A stretch of 62,755 nucleotides of DNA, counting the filler, from Sphacelaria rigidula (taxonomy: Eukaryota), in NCBI GenBank assembly GCA_964200075.2. It is 9 parts of 9 records of this genome, joined end to end, with 100 filler letters (N's around TTAATTAATTAA, not from the genome) between each part and the next. Parts side by side here need not be neighbours in the genome. Positions count along the whole stretch, not along the records: positions 27,939 to 34,822 come from CAXNAA020017584.1; 8 more parts are not named here. One strand, written 5' to 3'. Each line of letters begins with the position of its first letter. Within the stretch, counting starts at the first letter, position 1. The position numbers were made by a program, and so were the translations under genes. Positions 3,731 to 62,315 of this stretch are shown here, piece after piece. The notes below the pieces were generated by a model. It did no database searches. It saw only the letters and a program-made list of their open reading frames with translations, and was not told the DNA's origin.

Positions 3731-5135
3731 AGATAGGGGTAGCTCAAAGTGAATTGAAATCTTTTCGTGCGAAGCGCGCTTGTGGCCGAGCGTTTGAATA
3801 CCGCCACTCGGCAAAAATCGAGGACCCACTCGAAATCAGGTGAAGAACTATCGCATGATGAGACATGTCCTGTATCACTGTGCTGCAGCACAAACACACT
3901 CATGCTCTCTCTCGTGTGCTGTAGCTGTCGCTGCGCTGTGGTTCTTAGGCCTTGGTAGAGACGGTTTGATCTCCGCTGGGACTGCCTGAGTTGCTTGATT
4001 TTGTCATTACGTTCGTCTCTATGAAAAAGAAAGTTGTCGGCGCGCAGTGCTCTCTCTCTACACACTGTTGAAACCCTCATGGTGTGTTTGCTGTTTTGTC
4101 TCGAGTCAAACGAACAAGGCGCTTCCCAAGCCCATCATTTTTATGCTGTAGTTGTCGGTGTGCTGTTGTGCGTCTAAACACTCTACGACGATCACGGTGC
4201 GATGTGCGCTGGAGAGTGCCTGAATATTTGTGCTGCTGCATGCGGTGTTTCGGTGTGCACAGAATTGGGGTGGGATCAAAGTGTTGTCCAACAAAGAAAG
4301 GTTTACACAATCGTCACGTGACGGCTGTGCAGCTGTCTGTTGCGTCTTCTCTGGTACTTCAGTTACAGTCGGGTGCTGTGATCGGGGAAGACACGCAAGG
4401 CGGGTGCGTGCAGGTTGGGGCAAACAAACTGAGCCATCACGGAGCTGCTGTATCCTCGGTGATTGGTGGTAGCAGCTGTCTGTCTCGCAGCGGCGCAATG
4501 TGTGGACCAATCAGAGCTATTTGACCACTCAATTCCCACTTCTCTCATCTAATCGAAGGAAGGTTGCCGTCTTTTGGTATACTGAGAGACTCTGGTAGAA
4601 AAATACTGCCAGTAGAAATTATTCATTGGCTCACTGTCAAGACTTTTGGACCAATCAGAGCCTCTCAATATACCATAATGCGGCAACCTTTACACGGCAT
4701 GCAGCAGTGTAACTGTTCAAGCACTCTCCAGCGCACATCGCACCGTGATCGTCGTAGAGTGTTTAGACGCACAACAGCACACCGACAACTACAGTATAAA
4801 AATGATGGGCTTGGGAAGCGCCTTGTTCGTTTGACTCGAGACGAAATAGCCAACACACCATGAGCGTTTCAACAGTGTGTAGAGAGCACTGCGCGCCAAC
4901 ATTATTCTTCATAGAGACGAACGTAATGACAAACTCAAGCAGCTCAGGCAGTCCCAGCGAAGACCAAACCGTCTTTACCAAGGCCTAAGAACCACAGGGC
5001 AGCGACAGTTTCAGCACACGAGAGAGAACATAAGCGTGTTTGTGCTGCAGCACAGTGATACAGGACATGCCCCATCATGCGATAGTTCTTCCTTCGCGCG
5101 AAAAATTTTCAATTCACTTTGAGTTACCCCTATCT
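3731..5135. mobile_element. Non-autonomous DNA transposon with ~450-520-bp terminal inverted arms
   Basis: 3731-~4250 is the reverse complement of ~4690-5135 (AGATAGGGGTAGCTCAAAGTGAATTGAAA ... TTCAATTCACTTTGAGTTACCCCTATCT). The right arm lacks a ~65-bp block. Possible TA TSD outside GGGG...CCCC ends. Confidence 0.85.
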
Positions 5136-5180
5136 GCGGGAGGTGAGCCTGGATGCTGCCGGTTTGGTCCACGGAGGAAG

Positions 5181-17923: not shown

Positions 17924-18815
17924 GCGGGAAACTTGAGCATCATCTGTCATGGTGGGGGTGACCGACGGCGGTGCGTCGTAGGGTGAATACCCGGCTTGCG
18001 TACACCCTCATGGACGTTGCAGGCAGTACAGAGGTGCACGTTGTATACGTCCTGCTTACGTCGCGTTGTCATCAGGGTTAGGAGATTGTCCCGCGCTGTC
18101 TATACTGCATGATGCCGGCTTCTCGATTGGCCTGCTACTTTACGGTGCGAAACACGCACACAGACACCTACAGTAGACACACAACATGCGGACAGCGCAG
18201 ACAAGGCCGACTCTCTGTGCTGCAGAGACGAGGGATCAATTACCGCTTCATGACTCTCGTTTCCAATTTTGGAAGTAAAGTATGGAAAGTCGCCTGGACC
18301 CAAGTCAACAAGATGTACAAAACGAGGTCCACATCAATTCCACCGCTCCATTTTTGCGATCGAAATAACATGTGCCAAGACACGTCCATGTAGGTCGATT
18401 TTTTTTCACGAAATAACTCGTTTTGATGAGGTTTTGGAGACATCTGCCGGAACGCCACCCACATTGTGTCATTTTCCATCTCCATTACCTCTCGCAACTA
18501 TTATACGACCCTTCTCTACAGAGGGAGATATTTCCACGCCGTGAACAATGAAATACACAGTCAAAAAGTGTACAGCGTACAGTATCAACTTTTGCGCCTA
18601 TTGCAACATGCAATAGATTCCATACTGTACGCAGCACATTTTTTTGCACTATAACCTGTCTAGGGTGTTGAAATTTCCAACACTGTCCGCAAGCAGCCAT
18701 CACTTATCAGGGACTTTTGTGACGTGTGATACATGACGTTACATCATATACTCGACCCACGCTGCCCCCGCAGTTGTATAGTCAGCTCTCCATCATACTC
18801 TCGGCGCATACATGA

Positions 18816-19180
18816 GCCGGTCGCCCCGGTGGCTCAGTTGACAACCTCGAAACCTTCTGACGGTTGGGTGGTCAGTTTGCATCTCGTTGCAGTCACACGA
18901 TCTGGGATTTTTTCTCACACCATGCCCAACAGTGGACAACGACTATGTCGTGGGTAGACAATAATTCGACTTCACGGTCGACGAGGGAAAGGGACCGCTG
19001 AATCCCTCTCGCGATAAGTAACAAGGCAAGCGCCGCAGAAGGAAGGTGGATTACTAAATCAAAAGACGGAAAAAAAATCCCGTGTTGGCCTTCCTCCTGG
19101 GAGATCCCGACTGGTGCGCCCACATATACCGAAAGGTGTAGACTGATGCCCAGGATAGATGGGATGGGATGACACACACC
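18816..19180 (+). mobile_element. tRNA-derived SINE, copy 1
   Basis: A-box-like GGTGGCTCAGTTG, degenerate B box, a body shared with 28800 and 44976, and an (AC)n tail. Confidence 0.8.
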
Positions 19181-19205
19181 TACACATGCAAATGTAGCAC
19201 ACGCC

Positions 19206-19711
19206 GGGCGAGTCATTAATCGTCGAAACGAGTGCACTCGTAGTTTTTTTTTCAACACAACGAGCAATGACTCGTGTGCTCGAGTCCTGAACTTTTTTTT
19301 CACAACGAGCAATGACTCGCGTGCTCGGGCCATTTATTGTTATTATATGGAGTAATGATTCATGTGCTCGAGTCATTCATGTTTTTTAGAACGAGAATTG
19401 ACCCGCGTGCCCGAGTCATTCATTTTTGCTCAACAAGCAATGACTCGCGTGCTCGAGTCATTCTTGTATTTACAGCGAGCGATGACTCGTGCCCTTGAGT
19501 CAATATTTTTGCTCACCATGAGCAATGACTCGTGTGCTCGAGTCATCATTTTTTTTTCCCAACGAGCAATGATTCGAGTGCTGGAGTCATTTTTTTTCCC
19601 AACGAGCAATGAGTCGTGTGCTCATCTCATGATTCTTTTTCATGACGAGCAGTGACTCGTATGCTCGAGTCATTCATGTTTCCACAACGAGCAATGATTG
19701 GAGTGCTCGCC
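19206..19711. repeat. Tandem array of ~11 x ~42-bp hairpin units bounded by GGGCGAG inverted ends
   Basis: Unit consensus CAACGAGC-AATGACTCG-TGTGCT-CGAGTCATT plus a T-rich linker. GGGCGAG at 19206 and CTCGCCC ending at 19711. Confidence 0.85.
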
Positions 19712-26679: not shown

Positions 26680-27156
26680 AGGCTAATTCTTATGTATCAA
26701 AAAGTGAACCTTGTTCACAAGTACATTTTTGGCCCTTCTCCGTCGTTTTGGTCCCCAAAAGAGGGCTAGGCGGATGTGGACACCTTGGAATGACTTGCTC
26801 TACTCGCTGAGACCGTTGTCCAGAGCACCTGTGCGTTTTGTCTAGGTCACAGTTCCGTTCTTGGCCAAAATTGCGTTTTCAATAACAAACGGTCAAATTA
26901 TCGAAAAACAGGGGGAAAACTGCATTTTTTTCAACAACTCGACTGTCCGTTATCCAAAATGCATTTTTGGTCAAGAGCGCAACTGTGACCTAGACAAAAC
27001 GCAAATGTGCTCTGGAGAACGGTCTCAGCGAGTAGAGCAAGTCATTCCATGGTGTCCACATCCGCCTAGACCCTCCTTGGGGGACAAAAACGACGGAGAA
27101 GGGCCAAAAATCCCCTTGTGAACAAGTTTCACTTTTTGATACATAAGAAGCAGCCC
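26680..27156. mobile_element. Fold-back MITE family A (well-preserved palindrome)
   Basis: TTCTTATGTATCAAAAAGTGAA ... TTCACTTTTTGATACATAAGAA; ~230-bp arms. Confidence 0.85.
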
Positions 27157-27160
27157 TCAA

Positions 27161-27375
27161 AAGTGCTTTTTTGGCCCTTCCTCGCTGTTTTTCCCCCGGA
27201 AAGAGGGCTAGGCGGATGATGACACCTTGGAATGACTTCCTGTGCTCGTAGAGACCGCCTGAGAGTATCTTTGCGTTCCCCGTAGGTCACAGTTTTGTTT
27301 TTGACCAAACTATTATTTTCAATAATAAACGGTCAACTTATTATCCAAAAACAGGGTGAAAACTGCCATTTTTCT
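27161..27375 (+). mobile_element. Half-copy (left arm) of family A in tandem
   Basis: TTTTGGCCCTTC...GAGGGCTAGGCGGATG...ACACCTTGGAATGACTT repeats the preceding left arm. Confidence 0.7.
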
Positions 27376-27938: not shown

Positions 27939-28076
27939 CTAGATACTGACTATCCTCGATTTCTGCTGTGTTATGGGGGAGGAGCTGAGGTGAATGGCGG
28001 TGGTTGTTAGTATTTGTGCTTGTGCTACGACGACAATTCAAAATTTATAAAAATGATATATACCGTCATACTCCAT

Positions 28077-28212
28077 TTTCAACCCTTGCCCTTGCCTGGG
28101 ACACCGATGAGTCAGTCAATCCGTAGTCTCATGGGATAAACTCTCATGTTTCCCCCCGGTACGAGTACAAGCCTGGAATTTTCGTGCTGATCAGCACTCC
28201 CGCACTGTGTCG
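28077..28212 (-). repeat. Dispersed repeat family F, copy 2
   Basis: CCGTAGTCTCATGGGAT...CCCCCGGTACG...TCAGCACTCCCGCAC matches 56448-56575. Confidence 0.6.
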
Positions 28213-28799
28213 ACTTTTTTTGCTAGACAATCACCGCGCAAAAATACTGGCATTTCCTCAGGTTTCTCATCACTACCCGAACTATACCGCGCAAACATAT
28301 TGCTCCCAGTTTCCTGTACAGGAAAGCAAAATGAACTCCACTAGTCAACATGGCGTCACCCGAGTAGGTCAGTGGTACAGGCTGGTTCAGGGTGAAGGAC
28401 TAAAGTTAACTCCAGTGCCTCCTCACATTTTGTTCAACGACGGGACTCGGGTACTTCTCGGAATGAAAACACACACACACATTTACCGGGATTCAGATCC
28501 TCAATCTTGCGCCCTATTCCGCTCCAAGGCACACCAGTTAAATCATCGAGACACGACGGACGGTATGTAGGTGTTTCATCTCTGTAAGGGATCGGAGATA
28601 TATGGACAAGTATGTGACTCAGCTGGTCCATGCCAGAGTGGACGTGAGACACACACACTACCTTCAACTCATTTTGTATACGGGTACATTAAAAAACACC
28701 AGCGAAGTGCTCACGTCTCTGTGGCCGAAGCTACAACGCTTGTGGTTGTTGCAAAAGGATTCAGAGCGACCAAAACTTTAACCAAGCGATTAACAGGGT

Positions 28800-29148
28800 G
28801 AATCTCCCCGGTGGCTCAGTTGATAACCTCGAAACCCTCTGAAGGTTGGGTCGTGGGTTCACCTCTCGGAGCGATCTGGGATTTTTTCTCACGCCGTGCC
28901 CAACAGCGGAGAGCGACCATGTCGTGAGTACACAAAATTCGACTGAACGGTCGACGACGGAAAGGAACTGCTGAACCCCTCTCGCGATAAAAAAAGAAAG
29001 GCAAGCACCGCAGAAGGAAGGTGGAGTGCTTGGAAAAAGAAAAAAAAAGCCCCGGTGTTGACCTTTCTCCTGTGTGACCCCGGCTGATGCGCCCACATAT
29101 ACCGGAAGCTGTAGACCGGCGTCCAGAATAGAAGGGACGACAACACAC
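28800..29148 (+). mobile_element. tRNA-derived SINE, copy 2
   Basis: CCCGGTGGCTCAGTTG ... GTGGGTTCACCTC head, shared body, ACAACACAC tail. Confidence 0.85.
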
Positions 29149-29192
29149 GTTCAAGATTGTGTTTTGTAGGATGTACCGGCTGGAATTATCAA

Positions 29193-29326
29193 CCCTTTGG
29201 GAACCCATCGATGATTTTTTGGTATTGTCAATCGGCACCACTTTGATTTGAAAATGAGTGATTTGAAAATGAGTGAAAATGATGTCGATTCTCAAAAACA
29301 AAGATCGTTAATGGGTTTTCAAAGGC
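29193..29326. mobile_element. piggyBac-like mini-element (subfamily 2)
   Basis: TCAA|CCCTTTGGGAACCCAT ... ATGGGTTTTCAAAGGC|TTAA, with inner IR AATCGGCACCA / TGATGTCGATT. Confidence 0.75.
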
Positions 29327-29503
29327 TTAATAATAAGATAGTTACACAAGTAAAAAAGAGGAGTTGTATTAGTAAATGACCTTCCGGACCATATCGGAGT
29401 GCTCGGACCAGGTTTGTCTCCCGCTTTTCAACAAAAACAAATCCACCCCCAACAACCCCAACAAATCCCAAACAACAAATAAACGAACTTTAAATTAAAA
29501 TAA

Positions 29504-29621
29504 CCCTTTTGGAACTCATTGACGATTATTGTTTTTGTGAATCGGCATCATTCTCAGTAATTTTCGAGTCAAAATGATGTCGATTCACAAGAACAAAAGT
29601 GGTTGATGGGTTCCCAAAGGG
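29504..29621. mobile_element. piggyBac-like mini-element (subfamily 2)
   Basis: ATAA|CCCTTTTGGAACTCAT ... ATGGGTTCCCAAAGGG|TTAC, with inner IR GTGAATCGGCATCAT / ATGATGTCGATTCAC. Confidence 0.75.
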
Positions 29622-30093
29622 TTACATCATATACTTATTACATTATCTTCCCCTCTGTCAAAAATATAACGTTCACTTCCCATCCCAAAAACATTCCCAT
29701 TCCATCCTGAGGCAAACATCGTCAATTATTTCTTTGATTAATATATTCATCAATTTATTGTGGAGGATGAAACGCTTCGTATCAACTTCAATTTCTTACA
29801 ACGAAGAGAAATCGTGACAATTTTGGAAAGAAAAATTGCACTCCGGGAGGGAGGGGAGGGGAGGGGAGTATCCTTCCGACCCATACCAGAAATATTCGGC
29901 ACAAACTTCGGTATGGTTCACGCCAACCGAAAATTTCCCCCTTCCAGATATATACCCTATATAAATACCGAACACAACCTTTGAATAATTGACTGGCCCG
30001 GACAGGAGACACCGGCGGGTGCAGAGGCTTTGACTACCCGATTTGAGGTTAAGTAATAAATCCTACTCGTGCTCCCCACGTACGTGCCCGCAC

Positions 30094-30263
30094 CTTGTCA
30101 TCCAGCGTGAAGGCGCTGTTGAAATTCTCCACGGCGCGAATCGCCATCATGCTCGTCGTCGCCACAGCGGGACGAGACCGTGATGAAGTTGATGATCGTC
30201 GTGATCCAGGCCTACTCCTTCGTCCTCCGGCATGAGGGACGGAGTTGGTAGATAACCGTACAC
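30094..30263 (-). CDS. Putative exon, Ser/Arg-rich transit-peptide-like stretch followed by MMAIRAVENFNSAFTLDDK
   Basis: GCAG|GT acceptor and AAG|GTGCGG donor on the minus strand; 170-bp open frame. Confidence 0.45.
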
Positions 30264-30300
30264 CTGCACACATATCGATTGATCCATCAATCAATTGGTT

Positions 30301-30564
30301 CAAGGGTCGGACAAATCAATGATTCGTCTGGAAATTGCCTGGTTTTAGTGTGATTGATTCGAATCGTACGAATCAATAATCCCTAGGCTTTGTTTTCAGC
30401 GTTGCAACCCAGGAGGTACACGCAACCCAGACACGTGGAATGGCGCAAAAGTTGCTTGGATACCCCTTGGACCAGCGGTCAACTTTTTTCTCCCTTTTGG
30501 GCAATCAGGCCGAAGAATTCGTGGATTTGGTGATTCGTAGTCGTGATGGTTCGTCCTAACCGTG
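30301..30564 (-). mobile_element. hAT-like MITE family B, copy 4
   Basis: CAAGGGTCGGACAAA / TTCGTCCTAACCGTG termini. Perfect 8-bp TSD AATTGGTT (30293-30300, 30565-30572). Confidence 0.92.
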
Positions 30565-30652
30565 AATTGGTTGATTGGTTGACTGCCGCACACTATCTGC
30601 CTCGACACGGAATCCAGCCGTGGTCAGTCGGTAAAAAGACAGACGAGCTTAA

Positions 30653-30749
30653 CCCCTAGACCGCGAGTGTAGGTCGTCTGGCCATGCAGTCATTTTTCGA
30701 GTGAGATTGATGCTGATTCAACAGATGACCTATACTCGCGATCAAAGAG
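30653..30749. mobile_element. piggyBac-like mini-element (97 bp)
   Basis: TTAA|CCCCTAGACCGCGAGTGTAGGTCGTCTG ... CAGATGACCTATACTCGCGATCAAAGAG|TTCA. Confidence 0.75.
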
Positions 30750-31851
30750 TTCAGGGGAATAAACGGAAGCCACTCCCCCAATAGGGGAAAAAAAAAAAGT
30801 AGTCAGCTGCAATGGCACTGGGGAAGTCGAGGACGAAAGCGAGGCTGTGATGGCTCTGTATGCGTAGAGGTCACGTCTGCGTCTTTGCAATCGCCAACGG
30901 CGGCCCACACGCGTTTCAGTGAGGATGATTGATGTCCATGTTCCGGCTGCATTCGCGCTGCACAAGGAGGCCCCGCCGGCACCAACTGGCGAAGCCTCCC
31001 TTGCGACAATGGGAGATGTTTGTAGTGGAAACGGGCTGGTACTGTGGGACATTGCCCATGTTCACCGATCGTCCGATTGGACAACGTCGTCTTCATCTGC
31101 ACGACACCCTCGGACCCCAGACGACAGTTCAGCTTACAACGACGAAGCCGATTTCTTTTCTACGCCAGCACCTAGTCATGTGGTGAACCCGCCAGGTGAT
31201 TCGTTTTTTGTCTGTCTGGTTCAAAGGTTCCGATCCAGCTTGACGTTGTCTATTAATCGTTATGGTGATTCGTGTATAATTTTGTGCCGTAATCAGATTT
31301 CGTCCCGTAATTAATTTCACACCAAGTGTGACATTGGTTCCTAATTTGTTTCCGTGCTTCTGCGTAGATGATGTGGAACAGGACGAGGGAGGTTCGGACG
31401 TCGATGTTGAATGTCATCGTGATAAGAGCGGTAGCAGCTGGTCGTGTCAAGCAAACCACGCCGGCGGAGCAGGGGCGGGAGAAGGGAGCGAAGGCAATGT
31501 GGACCGTGTGAGGATCGCCAACATTGTGACGAGCGCGACCTACGTTTTGTTGTTGTTGTTGTTCTGGCAACGCTTGGCAAGCCATGTTTGTAGGGCTGTA
31601 AACTGGACCAGTTTGTACTGGCGATTAAAGTGGAAGTGGAGTTTAACTGGAACTGGTGATGAGGACTGCAGTTTATCAAGTTTATTTGAAGTTTGCCGTT
31701 ACCGACTATTTTTATACCGAGTTTAGTGTGGGGAGTTTATGACAAAGATGCTTACATCATTACGAACAAAATGACAGTAGAATTGGGGCCTGCACCTGAC
31801 AGCAGTACAAGTACAGACAGTACTCGTGCTACGAGGTGGGCCAGCCTAGAA

Positions 31852-32159
31852 GCGGATTCGGAGTTTCACGCTCATTTGCAATTTGATACTCGGAGTGGGA
31901 TTCTAAATTTTGGTATGGACAATCAGTAGGGCATAATAACAAAAATGTGCATGAACTCACAGTTTCTTCTTTTTTTTTTTCCATGATTTAACGGCAGTTT
32001 ACTAAAACCTGGAAACTGATTATTGCCTTTAACTCATGAAAAACGAAGAACTGTTTGGGTCCACGTACAACTTCTTTTTTATGCCCTATTGATTGTCCAT
32101 ACCAAATTTCAGGGCCCGACTCCAAGCATTGAATTACGAATGGGCCGTTTAAAATCCGC
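31852..32159. mobile_element. Fold-back element (further family)
   Basis: TTTGGTATGGACAATCAGTAGGGCATAA ... TTATGCCCTATTGATTGTCCATACCAAA inverted arms. Confidence 0.7.
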
Positions 32160-32801
32160 GTGGGTAAAAATTCGGAACATTATTGTGTAGGCCACTTACC
32201 GGCCCATGTTGGGTGTTTTGTGTAGTGAAATTTATGTGGGACCTCGCTAGGGCATGATGAACCAAAAAAAGTGAGTCATTTTTTTTTTCATGGTTTAGGC
32301 CGTTATAGTATGGTAACGACCATTTTTGTACGAGAACGCCCGAAACTCTTCCCCTCCCCCAAAACGAAGGCCCATTCTATTTCATTGAGCATACTTTTAT
32401 CCCCGCGTGCTGCCAGCCTTGGCTAGCTTGCATCCTCTTCTCCTCACGGAGAGTCTGCTGCTGCATATCACAGATGAATGATTGTCGAATCGGTCACCGC
32501 TTTGAATGGGATTTAAATGCCATCCAAGACTTTTGGCTCCTCAATGTGAGGGGTCACATTTTCCACATTTTTTAAATATTTATTGAAGGAAAAACAGGCC
32601 AAATGACGCAATTTTTCTCGCCTACACCGGCGCCCCGGGGGGGCCCCTCACTATCCGCGGGGAGCCGTTTGCGGCTGGTGGCTTCACCCCTCGCACGACT
32701 TCATCACTTTTCTGCAGCGCGTAAGCATCATACTTGACAGTTTTTACGATAGCTCCTCCCCCCAAACCAGCCCAAAAGTGTCACTAAAAAAATGGTCATA
32801 C

Positions 32802-32995
32802 AGCGCTTCATTTTTGGGTTCAGGCTGCATGAAGCGCCTCATATGGGCGACATTGGCGAGAACGAACCCAAGCGTGGGAATTCCCAGCTGTTCGTTGTGC
32901 TCGGCTTTTTCCACTTCGATATACGTTAACATTTCGCCTCCCCAAACCAGGCACTTTTTTCGGGGGTGGCGGGGTATAGTAGAAAAAGTGTCACT
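32802..32995 (-). repeat. Dispersed repeat shared with ~13715-13870
   Basis: GGTTCAGGCTGCATGAAGCGCCTCATAT...AGAACGAACCCAAGC is the reverse complement of the contig-2 segment. Confidence 0.75.
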
Positions 32996-33073
32996 TGTCG
33001 CACGCCGTTCTGTTGTAAGTCATCTCGTTTGTATCGTTGGCGTCTCTAACGTGGGCGGGAAGGTGCCGAGAGC

Positions 33074-34590
33074 GCGATCGCGGTTCGCCTGGACATTTTC
33101 CATGCACCCCAACGCATCTCGCGCTTGTTGATGAAAAGCCACGGGGCGTTCAAGCCTTTCATGTCTCGGTTAAGAGACGCATACCTCATCGTGAATCGAG
33201 ACGGCATGACGGAGACAAGTAGTCTTCACCACGTCGGCAGCGCTCCCACCGATATTTAGATAACTAACAGACAAAAAAAAAAATTAATCCCAACCACAAA
33301 CGCCCATGGTATAATCGCCTCACGTCTTCGCAACACGCGGCAGGCTGAGAAAGCTCTCGAATCTGCAGGAATGACACCGGTGGGCGGATACAAGGATAAA
33401 AACTGGACGTACTTCTTGAAGCACTGCCGTCGGTTGGTACCGGAACGGGAGCGTTTGTTGGCGCGATTCGATTCGGTGATCAACCATTTCAATGGTGTTA
33501 TCGATTCGAAATCGGGGGAAGAATTGCTGCGACCGAAAGTACTGGCAGCCATCAAGCTGCTCCGTCTGCCTATCTCCGACGGATGCCTGAGTGACCCGGA
33601 AGGAGTCCCGCTGTACTACACGATGGGCAGGAGTCGGCGATGCGTCAGAGGAACACGCAGCACGGAGGTTGGTTGTGATCAATGTATTCAGGAATTTCCG
33701 GTACATTCCCCCCCCCCCCTCATGTTCTTCGGATGGCGTAGCTCTTGGTTCTCCGTAAGTATCGCTCGCCCAGGTGTTTGTTCGTCTGATCTTGAAACTC
33801 AGGGTAGACTGGCACATGTCGCCGAACATAGTTCCGATTCGCGCGTTCGTCTTCTTTGCTTCAGGGCTATCACCGCTATCTACGGACCCTGCTCTCGTCG
33901 CGTCGTATTGTGCCTCTCCTAAACTCGCCCACTCCATCCTTCTCGAGTTCAATTATCGCTGGGACATCAATGTGGCTGTGAAAAACCGTGGATTGCAGAC
34001 GGCGCTCGATTCTTTCTTTACGACCAGTCAGATATTGACACCATACAGTGTAAGATGGCTGATTGGTATCCAGACACACCTCTTCTTCCTCATTGGGTCT
34101 CTGCGCTTGATGCCGCAGATACTGGTGAAAGAAGCGGGCTTTCTCAAAGTACGTGGGGGTCTCTTGATGCTGATGTAGAGGCGAACCCGCCGAGTGGAGA
34201 CGTGCCGGTAAATATTTTCGACGAGCAGGGTTCGGTTCAAAACACCGTGCCATTCCCAAGACTCACGCACTCCGCCAAGCGATATGCACGCATGATGAAG
34301 GCTGGAATGCCTGAAGTGCCGGTGCACACTGGTGGAGCAGAGAGACGCATATTCAAAAGCGAACTCGACGACAAACCGTTTTTGCCCTGAAGATCAAAGC
34401 GGCAGACTCCAACAGCATCAGCATATCATTTTCGATAAGTGAGCAGTAAAGTGGAACAAGTACTGTGAACACATCGAGTCCGGCGAGGTAGGGTGGGAGG
34501 CAGTCCATCGAACGACCTCTGAGCAACTGGAGGGGTACCATGAGCAACATATGCAGAGTACGAATATCACGCTAACAATGCTTCCAACTC
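33074..34590 (+). pseudogene. Dada-type DDE transposase relic (C-terminal half) with introns 33215-33343 and 33668-33864
   Basis: Motifs in order: VRLDIFH (DxxH, 33083-33103), SHGAFKPFMSRLRDA, HCRRLVP, GCLSDPEGVPLYY, RCVRGTRSTE|GYH (catalytic E at the splice junction), LEFNYRW, PVHT..ERRIF, KWN...EQLEGY. Frameshifts, a stop and a degenerate first donor show decay. Confidence 0.75.
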
Positions 34591-34822
34591 GTGTACAGCA
34601 CCAGCATTTGCGCACAGATTTGCAGCTACTTGCGGGAGGGAAACAATTTGATCGCTTGGTCGGCGAAGCAGTACCCGAGCCAACCCCACAGAAGCGACCT
34701 CGGGAAGGCGTCACCAGCAGTGACGAGAGGGGTTCGGCAGCGGGGGGGCTGTACTCATGATAATGCATGCCATAGTCATAAGACCATTGACCTCGCATCC
34801 CAACAAAGCCGGGACGGAGCAC

Positions 34823-58141: not shown

Positions 58142-58619
58142 CTGTGTTCTGTAAGGTACCGGTACATTCTGTAGGGTATGAGATTCCTCACAGAACTTGT
58201 CTTATACGGTATGGGAGGCTTACAGAAAACCGGTGCCGGCAATCGGGTATTTCTTCAAGGGGATACCCGCCCTTCGGGTCATGGGAAAGTTTCTGTACAT
58301 ACCTCGCAGAACTGTCGGGTAAGGGTATGCGAGGCTTCCAGAACTCACAGAAACTGTCGGGGAGGGTATGGAGGTTGCACAGAAAACCGTACCCGCAACC
58401 GAGTATCTTATCAAGAGCATACCCGTGTCCCCCGGTAACGACACGGGAGGCTCACAGACTTCACCGAGCTATCGGGTACGGGTATGAAGGTCCTACAGAG
58501 ATTACAGAAGTGTCGGGGATCGGTATGGAAATCGTACAGAGTTTACAGAACTATCGGGTACGATGAATACCCGGCAAAATACCCCGGGTATACAGAAAAC
58601 CGTACCCTACAAAACACGT
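58142..58619. mobile_element. hAT-like non-autonomous element family E with internal ~36-bp repeats, copy 1
   Basis: GTGTTCTGTAAGGTAC / GTACCCTACAAAACAC termini; repeats of ACAGAACTGTCGGGTAxGGGTATG. No TSD recognised. Confidence 0.75.
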
Positions 58620-59294
58620 TCTTGGTATTATCATCACCCCTGTGGTGTGACCTTCGTCACTACAACAGTGGCGAAATACAGATGACAGTTCACGAAAACT
58701 CCGAACAGCTTCACGGGGTTGACAGAGAAAGACTACACGAACAATCGCAGTAGTACATGTGCACGGGATCTTCAACTTCTATTGGTTTCACGTACACTAC
58801 CAGAGAGTACATGAAGGAGCATTCACGGCTACCCGTTCTCTAGAAGCCCTTCAGCACGCGACAAAATCGCCGCCGGCCTTGACTTTCGGTGGCAGCTCAT
58901 ACTCTGTGCCGTACATGTCGATAAGGGTCTGGGGTTTGGTGACCACGACACAACCACCATTAACGTGGATGCCGTGCGTCTTGCCACTTGCTCCTCTAGT
59001 GGCGCAGATGAACGACCCCCGCTCGACCCACCACTCGAGCCTGGGGTTGATCCATGCTGACGGTCTGCAGGGCTGCTCATGTTTTGCGTTTCCACCCAGC
59101 GGTACCTCGTATCCCGTCAGATTCCAAACCAAAGAACTTTTCAACATTGAATCATTGTTGGTGTGCAATTTTGATTGAAGGAGTTGGGTGGGTTGATCGA
59201 TGGGAGGTACATGTTCAGGTCATGAGGTTGTGTTTGGATTCAACCTATATCCGTACCTCCCTAAGGTATATACCTGTGCTCATACCTGCAATCG

Positions 59295-59789
59295 GGTACA
59301 TCTGTAACGGTATACCCTAACCCCGGGTAGGGGTATGGAAGGCTTACAGAGCTCACAGAACTGTCGAGTACCGGTACTGGATGAAAGTCGTACAGAAATA
59401 CAGAACTTGTCGGGTACGGTATGAGGGACTTCCAGAGAACCGGCACCGGCAATCGGATATTTCTTCAAGAGCATACCCGCGCTCCAGGTACGGGTAAATA
59501 TTTTGTACAGAACTCACAGATATGTCGGGTAAGGGTATGAGAGACTTGCAGAACTCACAGAAACTGTCGGGTAGGGTATGGAGGTTGCACAGAGAACCGT
59601 ATCCGCAATCAGGTATCTTCTCGAGAGCGTACCCGTGCCGGTAACGGTACGAGAGTCTTGCAGAGATTACAGAACTATTGGGTAAGGGTATGAAAGTCTT
59701 GCAGAGATTACAGAACTGTCGGGTACGGCAAACACCCGGCAAAATACCCCGGGTATACAGAAAACCGTACCCTACAGAGTACAACCCTG
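59295..59789. mobile_element. Family E, copy 2 (left end degenerate)
   Basis: Colinear with copy 1, including ACCCGGCAAAATACCCCGGGTATACAGAAAACCGTACCCTACA; ends ...ACCCTG. Confidence 0.75.
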
Positions 59790-62160: not shown

Positions 62161-62242
62161 GTGTGTGTTGTGAGTTATCGTCCCATCTACTCTGGACGCC
62201 GGTCTACACCTTTCGGTATATGTGGGTGCACTAGCCAGGGTC
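62161..62242 (-). mobile_element. 3' fragment of the tRNA-SINE family
   Basis: TCTGGACGCCGGTCTACACCTTTCGGTATATGTGGG is the reverse complement of the SINE 3' end, with an AC tail. Confidence 0.75.
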
Positions 62243-62315
62243 ATTTGTTCTCTTTTTTGTTTGTTTTAGTTATCCTCCTTCCTTGTGCGATCTGGAGAAT
62301 GTATATTTTTAATAG

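Follow-up and report, generated by a model that had tools for sequence, protein, structure and literature searches.

A dead Dada-1_ES-clade transposase relic in Sphacelaria rigidula, with relatives that have TIRs, 8-bp TSDs and A/T-rich target sites

Introduction

A broken, intron-containing transposase gene of Sphacelaria rigidula raises the question of which transposon family left it behind, and of whether that family inserted into small-RNA genes. The original prediction had named an uncharacterised lineage of Dada, with tRNA-headed SINEs of the genome as possible targets. As described in PMC3706591, all Dada elements with definable termini were located in small-RNA genes with TSDs of 6–7 bp, and no TIRs were found for Dada-U6 and Dada-U1. 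The locus, its relatives, and their insertion sites were compared with these properties.

Results

Structure and decay of the relic

The window, that is, the whole stretch of 62,755 nucleotides analysed here, was composed of contigs joined by N spacers. The relic was located on contig G000:C17584 (CAXNAA020017584.1, positions 27939–34822), spanned approximately 30772–34748, and corresponded to about residues 222–887 of the protein P0004. Its exons and introns, and the repeats inserted in it or adjoining it, were as follows.

30654–30751, no strand assigned: ~110-bp TTAA-flanked MITE adjoining the 5′ break of the relic (alignment of seven copies)
30772–31200, + strand: upstream transposase exon from the region after the exonuclease, with one stop (tblastn: P0002 residues 282–404, E 7e-17; P0004 residues 222–365, E 1e-13)
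31368–31500, + strand: probable acidic/Gly-rich linker exon (comparison with P0002 by eye)
31590–32694, + strand: 5′ 1.1 kb of a very high-copy MITE of ~1.2 kb with the ends TAGGGCTG/CAGCCCTA, inserted in the relic
32733–32992, no strand assigned: second repeat inserted in the relic, unclassified
33068–33214, + strand: exon with the DxxH motif (RLDIFH) and SHGAFKPFMSRL
33215–33343, + strand: intron with an AC donor in the relic and an AG acceptor (alignment of copies)
33344–33667, + strand: exon of the helical insertion region, ending at the putative catalytic Glu (HCRR, CLSDPEGVPLY, RCVRGTRSTE)
33668–33864, + strand: GT–AG intron immediately after the Glu codon (alignment of copies)
33865–34748, + strand: last exon, with GYH from 33865, LEFNYRW, and the C-terminal region to about residue 887 of P0004 (tblastn, E 3e-72, four segments)
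34743–34822, no strand assigned: unrelated repeat reaching the contig end at 34822

The motifs quoted in the original prediction (RLDIFH, SHGAFKPFMSRL, HCRR, CLSDPEGVPLY, RCVRGTRSTE, GYH, and LEFNYRW) were all recovered on the + strand, and the GT–AG intron that it had placed directly after the Glu codon was borne out by the aligned copies. The donor of this intron was GAG followed by GT in 7/7 copies, and the acceptor AG was followed by GG(C/T)TA in the six of seven copies that reached it. The donor of the intron 33215–33343, which was AC in the relic, was GC in five of six other copies (GAG, AAG, or CAG followed by GCAAG) and TC in the remaining one. The intron sequences differed between subfamilies and the exons were alignable. 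The exon 33344–33667 carried two short in-frame deletions, and the helices of its insertion region were taken from the predicted model of a sister protein. This exon had 10 matches among 12 candidates in its own genome and matched eight database proteins (E 2e-34 to 7e-20), of which the species-named ones were from brown algae; it is therefore not a chance similarity.

The relic contained three frameshifts (near 33900, 34016, and 34385) and two stops, one inside the exon 30772–31200 and the other at 34440. Nothing remained of the N-terminal zinc finger, the two Asp motifs, the exonuclease, the C-terminal finger, or the two ends, and inserted repeats accounted for ~1.4 kb in total. The exon 30772–31200 was present in one copy only at the DNA level, and transposase homology 5′ of 30772 was not found on the contig. 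A Pfam search of the nine window pieces gave nothing significant, and a close copy of the relic's own subfamily was not found in the genome. No end-like site was detected on G000:C17584, where the best score of a 20-bp matrix was 9.5 vs 12.8–24.2 for the training ends. The remaining ends of the relic were not found, and contig G000:C8278 could not be linked to it. The relic is a dead, single, 5′-truncated copy of the WRN-exonuclease type of Dada, and it is now inactive.

The ~1.2-kb MITE at 31590–32694, which we take to be hAT-like, had 5423 first-look candidates in the genome, 40 of which were scored, and contained an internal palindrome of ~280 bp. Its right end was not found at the relic. 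A TIR-like 40-mer at 32190 was rejected as a transposon end, being located inside this high-copy MITE. The ~110-bp MITE, presumably piggyBac-like from its TTAA ends, had another copy at 39553–39651 and occurred within the 3′ region of subfamily B elements as well; a reverse match of 30649–30770 to the 3′ region of a sister was explained by this independent MITE. Further multi-copy or palindromic MITE-like repeats were observed at 30300–30566, 1225–1701, 26681–27373, and 45825–46268, and tandem arrays at 19244–19709 and 58187–59776.

Assignment to the Dada superfamily

The best named match to the exon 33344–33667 was the Ectocarpus protein P0002 (63% identical, E 4e-34), in which the exonuclease row printed for Dada-1_ES in Fig. 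S1 of PMC3706591 was found, by visual comparison, without a single letter changed. The relic fell within a starred clade of six rows (100/98) in a tree of 36 rows, together with P0002, P0001, and subfamily B of the same genome. The identity of the relic in the tree alignment was 67% to P0002 (222 core columns) and 65% to C3587, and subfamilies C and D were 52% and 37% identical to it. The row match and the starred clade support the predicted Dada membership. Dada-1_ES was named in 2013 and the relic is its close sister; the relic therefore does not represent an uncharacterised lineage.

The DxxH motif and the Glu were present in the relic, and the Asp motifs GDASF and xDECC were present only in the sisters C3587 and C1395; the catalytic residues were assigned by motif. 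The protein of the relatives was ordered as a CCCC finger, two Asp motifs, an inserted DEDD exonuclease, DxxH, Glu, and a C-terminal CCHC-like finger. The two fingers were identified by eye in C3587. The exonuclease, located between the second Asp and DxxH, was complete in the sisters; PF01612 was detected on P0004 (E 2e-9), and the exon with the fourth exonuclease Asp was found in G000:C3587 (YACLD) and also in C287. The predicted model of a sister protein had a WRN fold with a poor mean pLDDT of 50.8, and among the structural matches shown only exonucleases were matched.

Among 20 distant relatives, those with names being brown algal, fungal, or protist, PF01612 was found in 18, and DUF6729, an N-terminal domain outside the relic, was above the cut-off in eight. 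Two distant relatives also had protease domains: P0077 carried OTU, and P0115 carried UCH with no exonuclease detected. MULE or hAT Pfam transposase domains were found in none of the nine window pieces, six close relatives, and 20 distant relatives, and the core profile had no sequence match in the PDB. None of 18 pattern matches in viral contigs was confirmed as a relative. The 20 proteins looked up and a profile search contained no identified fish Dada, with 150 of 2377 matches listed and 8000 candidates scored in the profile search; the link to the target-specific Dada therefore rests on PMC3706591, where the alignment of Kojima and Jurka includes Dada-1_ES together with all Dada and shared zinc fingers are listed. 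The fingers of that list were present in the sisters.

Ends, TSDs, and non-autonomous copies of the relatives

TIRs starting with GGC were found in five sister subfamilies, B, C, D, and E among them, and in the metagenome relatives L120 and L121. The full element of the relatives was ~8.2–8.6 kb long, with a multi-intron gene and imperfect TIRs of ~25–45 bp. Subfamily B had three long copies, C3587 (8398 bp), C287 (8609 bp), and the internally deleted C83 (3581 bp), with TIRs starting with GGCAC and TSDs matching at 8/8, 6/8, and 7/8 positions, respectively. Within the first 24 bp, the TIRs were identical at 22 positions in B, 19 in C, 21 in D, 19 in L120, and 16 in L121. Subfamilies C and D had their own GGC-starting TIRs with TSDs of 3/8 and 6/8, the TSD at C1395 being only 3/8. 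In L120 the TIR was 24 bp long and the 8-bp TSD was perfect, and L121 had a weaker TIR and a TSD of 3/8. The ends of C, D, and L121 were from one copy each, with boundaries placed by eye. The last 14 bp were identical among L120, L121, and G000:C4562. Six of eight metagenome loci matched the exonuclease only and were set aside.

Searches with the subfamily B ends gave 205 and 140 candidates, of which 40 each were scored and 30 each fetched. Both ends of a 0.6–1-kb non-autonomous copy were found at 18 distinct loci of these 60, one duplicate having been dropped, and all 18 MITEs matched the full element over the first 440–545 bp (70–78%) and over the final ~60 bp. When TSD lengths of 2–12 bp were scanned for these 18 MITEs and the three long copies (n = 21), the only peak was at 8 bp, with 6/21 exact and 11/21 within one mismatch, compared with 0/21 at 6 bp, 0/21 at 7 bp, and 0.5% in a mismatched-pair control. 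For the family E MITE, 278 candidates were found and 40 scored; 29 other loci were analysed, and 20 of these were two-ended. The 8-bp TSD was exact in 7/20 and within one mismatch in 14/20, compared with one at 6 bp, two at 7 bp, and none in the control. Family E was tied to a transposase only by a zinc-finger fragment (34% identical, E 6e-6), by 71% identity over 215 bp to a B MITE, and by a shared subterminal palindrome. When both families were pooled, an 8-bp TSD with at most one mismatch was present in 25/41 two-ended insertions (controls at most 0.5%), more than one mismatch was present in 16/41, and lengths of 6 and 7 bp were seen in 1/41 and 2/41. The TSD in the sister subfamilies was thus 8 bp and not the expected 6–7 bp.

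Since the relic had neither ends nor a close copy, its end features were transferred from the relatives by phylogeny, and by this reasoning the relic and Dada-1_ES would have had the same kind of ends.

A near-palindrome of the type TCGCGCTTCGCGCGA was located ~45 bp inside the right ends of the divergent subfamilies B, C, and E (e.g., L011:9345–9360) and is a candidate transposase-binding site. Subterminal tandem repeats of ~200–300 bp were observed in B and E. At G000:C3587:276–9772, a full-length Dada element was nested in another element with inverted ends of ~35 bp and its own exact 8-bp duplication. A rearranged family E Dada-type MITE on another contig (~3716–5149) had two inverted arms with right ends outward, at 5094–5149 (+) and 3772–3731 (−), and a palindromic centre near 4560–4690.

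Insertion sites

The targeting of small-RNA genes was tested on the sister subfamilies because the relic has no ends. No tRNA gene was detected at the default score in any of 41 rejoined empty sites. Relaxed-score tRNA calls at 3/41 sites were rejected as background, since 90/400 random controls also scored. Eleven Dada-type target motifs were absent from the target 8-mers of two sets (0/68 and 0/42), and neither tRNA nor snRNA was found by Rfam in 60 end loci, 13 long loci, and two metagenome loci, all outside family E. The targets are A/T-rich and otherwise unrelated: positions 2–7 were 59–75% A/T (n = 56), compared with ~50% GC in the window. Two observations spoke against complete randomness of the sites: several flanks were within repeats, and the right flanks of the subfamily B loci L062 and L069 mapped to one repeat, only a few bases from each other, through either shared ancestry or local preference.

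The predicted tRNA-headed SINEs were indeed present in the genome. The copy nearest to the relic was the following.

28803–29148, + strand: tRNA-headed SINE with A-box-like and B-box-like stretches (by eye) and a CA-repeat tail (relaxed ARAGORN)

The window contained three near-full copies (28803–29148, 18810–19197, and 44971–45329) and one fragment (62163–62243). SINE contact was seen in 0/79 subfamily B flanks and 1/49 family E flanks, the latter in a SINE tail, and no flank was in a SINE head. On G000:C1991 the SINE was inserted in a Dada copy, and not the reverse. The SINE at 28803–29148 is context and not a Dada target, and the suggestion that small-RNA genes or SINE heads were targeted was not upheld in the sister subfamilies. 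No tRNA-derived SINE is named in the main text of the Ectocarpus TE paper.

End-to-end junctions

Two junctions of a right end with a left end were found (G000:C10571:4372–4377 and G000:C8278:2808–2813). Their partners were non-identical, and the spacer was 6 bp long in both. Each spacer matched the right flank of the downstream copy at 4/6 positions, in the expected register at C8278 and one base off at C10571. One of two first junction candidates, C7932, was a chance match. When 63 left ends were tested, one junction was found (C10571), the C8278 locus not being in that set. A looser junction pattern gave nine matches, one of which was a real junction, vs seven in a control. The 6-bp junctions (n = 2) are a lead toward a copy-out mechanism.

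Discussion

Origin of the relic and alternative explanations

Taken as a whole, the locus is very probably a dead relic of the Dada-1_ES clade, whose relatives have TIRs, 8-bp TSDs, non-autonomous copies of ~0.9 kb, and no targeting of small-RNA genes. An origin as a domesticated host gene, or as a host gene for a WRN-like exonuclease, would agree with the annotation of P0002 as "similar to Werner syndrome protein" and with the single copy of the relic at the DNA level, but it is hardly credible for a gene with three frameshifts and two stops that has also lost a splice donor and its N-terminal half and taken up MITEs, and whose relatives are bounded by TIRs and TSDs. Kolobok, for which a TTAA TSD of 4 bp and RR..YY termini are described in PMC9587614, was rejected; the GG..CC termini alone would fit, but the TSD was variable and 8 bp long, and an exact 4-bp TSD was found in 0/41 insertions. 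It is very unlikely that this Dada lineage targeted the A box of tRNA genes, snRNA genes, or SINE heads. Targeting of this kind is known from the Dada of fish and Perkinsus (PMC3706591 and PMC8869645), and both the Dada membership and the tRNA-headed SINEs hold; nevertheless, targeting is contradicted for subfamilies B and E by the absence of default tRNA calls and of Dada-type motifs at their targets, by relaxed calls no more frequent than in controls, by the 8-bp TSDs, and by the SINE lying inside a Dada copy.

The exonuclease-bearing TIR elements would form a separate group, nearer to MuDR/IS256 and merely lumped with Dada, if their TIRs, TSD length, targeting, and exonuclease, all unlike described Dada, were given most weight, together with the lack of fish Dada among the proteins looked up and the profile matches listed. 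This is unlikely in view of the alignment of Dada-1_ES with all Dada and the listed zinc fingers recovered here (PMC3706591), and of the lack of MULE or hAT Pfam families in the 20 relatives.

Proposed mechanism

For the Dada-1_ES-clade elements preferred above, the transposase would bind the TIRs and the subterminal motifs, strand transfer with a stagger of 8 bp would insert the element without targeting of small-RNA genes, and the MITEs would have been mobilised in trans. The exonuclease may trim the ends, after an untried suggestion of Kojima and Jurka.

Cut-and-paste is the default expectation from the eukaryotic C/DxxH relatives. The same elements could instead have followed an IS256-like copy-out/paste-in route, in which one end would attack ~6 bp outside the other, and the resulting circle junction would be integrated with an 8-bp TSD; the 6-bp flanks carried by fish Dada would be the same spacer. 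This route is a tentative possibility. The two junctions shared the spacer length and the 4/6 flank match, and the rough chance of one such neighbour pair was 0.002–0.06 (200–1000 ends). On the other side, there were two junctions only, with one among the 63 left ends tested, the looser pattern was not enriched, no identical tandem dimer was seen, and one-ended events also happen in cut-and-paste elements. Published parallels are the 6–8-bp spacers of ISCth4 (IS256 family), with the best integration at 6 bp and A/T-rich 8-bp TSDs (PMC7780238), the Dada-U1A/U1B tandems 6 bp apart (PMC3706591), and the 6-bp flanks carried with Dada-tA/tY (PMC8869645). The broadest version is doubtful. In it, exonuclease-bearing Dada would carry TIRs, make 8-bp TSDs, and move by way of a circle of the IS256 kind with a spacer of 6 bp, so that a copy-out/paste-in pathway of bacterial type would operate in a eukaryotic nucleus; the TIR-less, small-RNA-targeting fish Dada would be derived from them, with a 6-bp "TSD" that is partly carried spacer.

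Significance

The relic itself is an ordinary remnant, and its clade was already known. At the level of the family, the anatomy runs counter to three published Dada hallmarks and changes the definition of Dada: the lack of TIRs, 6–7-bp TSDs, and small-RNA targeting are not general. The sister subfamilies predict the missing ends of Dada-1_ES, make hundreds of unclassified ~0.9-kb MITEs assignable to Dada, and provide an untargeted, TIR-bearing comparison group for the origin of target specificity. Should circles underlie the 6-bp junctions, copy-out/paste-in by a eukaryotic transposon could be put directly to the test.

Comparison with known systems

No published description of a TIR-bearing Dada with 8-bp TSDs was found in the open literature; Repbase and subscription journals were outside this scope, and an earlier mention is possible. 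The terms "inverted repeat" and "TIR" are absent from the main text of PMC8869645, and Dada TIRs are undescribed in the accessible text of PMC5751038, PMC9587614, PMC4455052, and PMC12973397, the last of which lists Dada among the superfamilies screened by a TIR pipeline.

The relic is filed with the Dada-1_ES clade, and not with the U6, U1, tRNA, or 5S lineages. Its DxxH motif, Glu motif, and splice position after KE agreed with P0002. Its relatives and Dada-1_ES/Dada-1_Ec32 have in common an exonuclease of the WRN type located after the second Asp and before DxxH, whereas the relic has lost its exonuclease half along with the two ends. The Dada-1_Ec32 entry in the 2025 Ectocarpus library (PMC12477816) is listed as incomplete with TSD "?", whereas the sister subfamilies here gave ends, an 8-bp TSD, and MITEs.

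The target-specific Dada (Dada-U6, -U1, -tA, -tL, -tY, and others; PMC3706591 and PMC8869645) share the DxxH-type DDE transposase, the CCCC and CCHC-like fingers, and the introns, and tandems 6 bp apart have been reported for them as well. They are described with fixed sites in small-RNA genes and 6–7-bp TSDs, and for Dada-U6 and Dada-U1 without TIRs, whereas the sisters here combined TIRs and an exonuclease with 8-bp TSDs at unrelated, A/T-rich sites. The Laccaria elements Dada-1_LB and Dada-2_LB (PMC3706591) have the exonuclease at an equal place, and fungal and protist PF01612/DUF6729 relatives were recovered; however, the fungal and protist rows were distant in the tree, with 26–42% identity in the core.

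A C/DxxH-type DDE transposase, TIRs, and an A/T-rich 8-bp TSD are shared with IS256 (ISCth4, PMC7780238) and with eukaryotic MuDR/hAT/P, and the 6-bp spacers of the two junctions would correspond to the end-to-end spacer of ISCth4. In contrast to these systems, no Pfam match to them was found in the 20 relatives, and the Dada gene is far larger, intron-rich, and equipped with an exonuclease.
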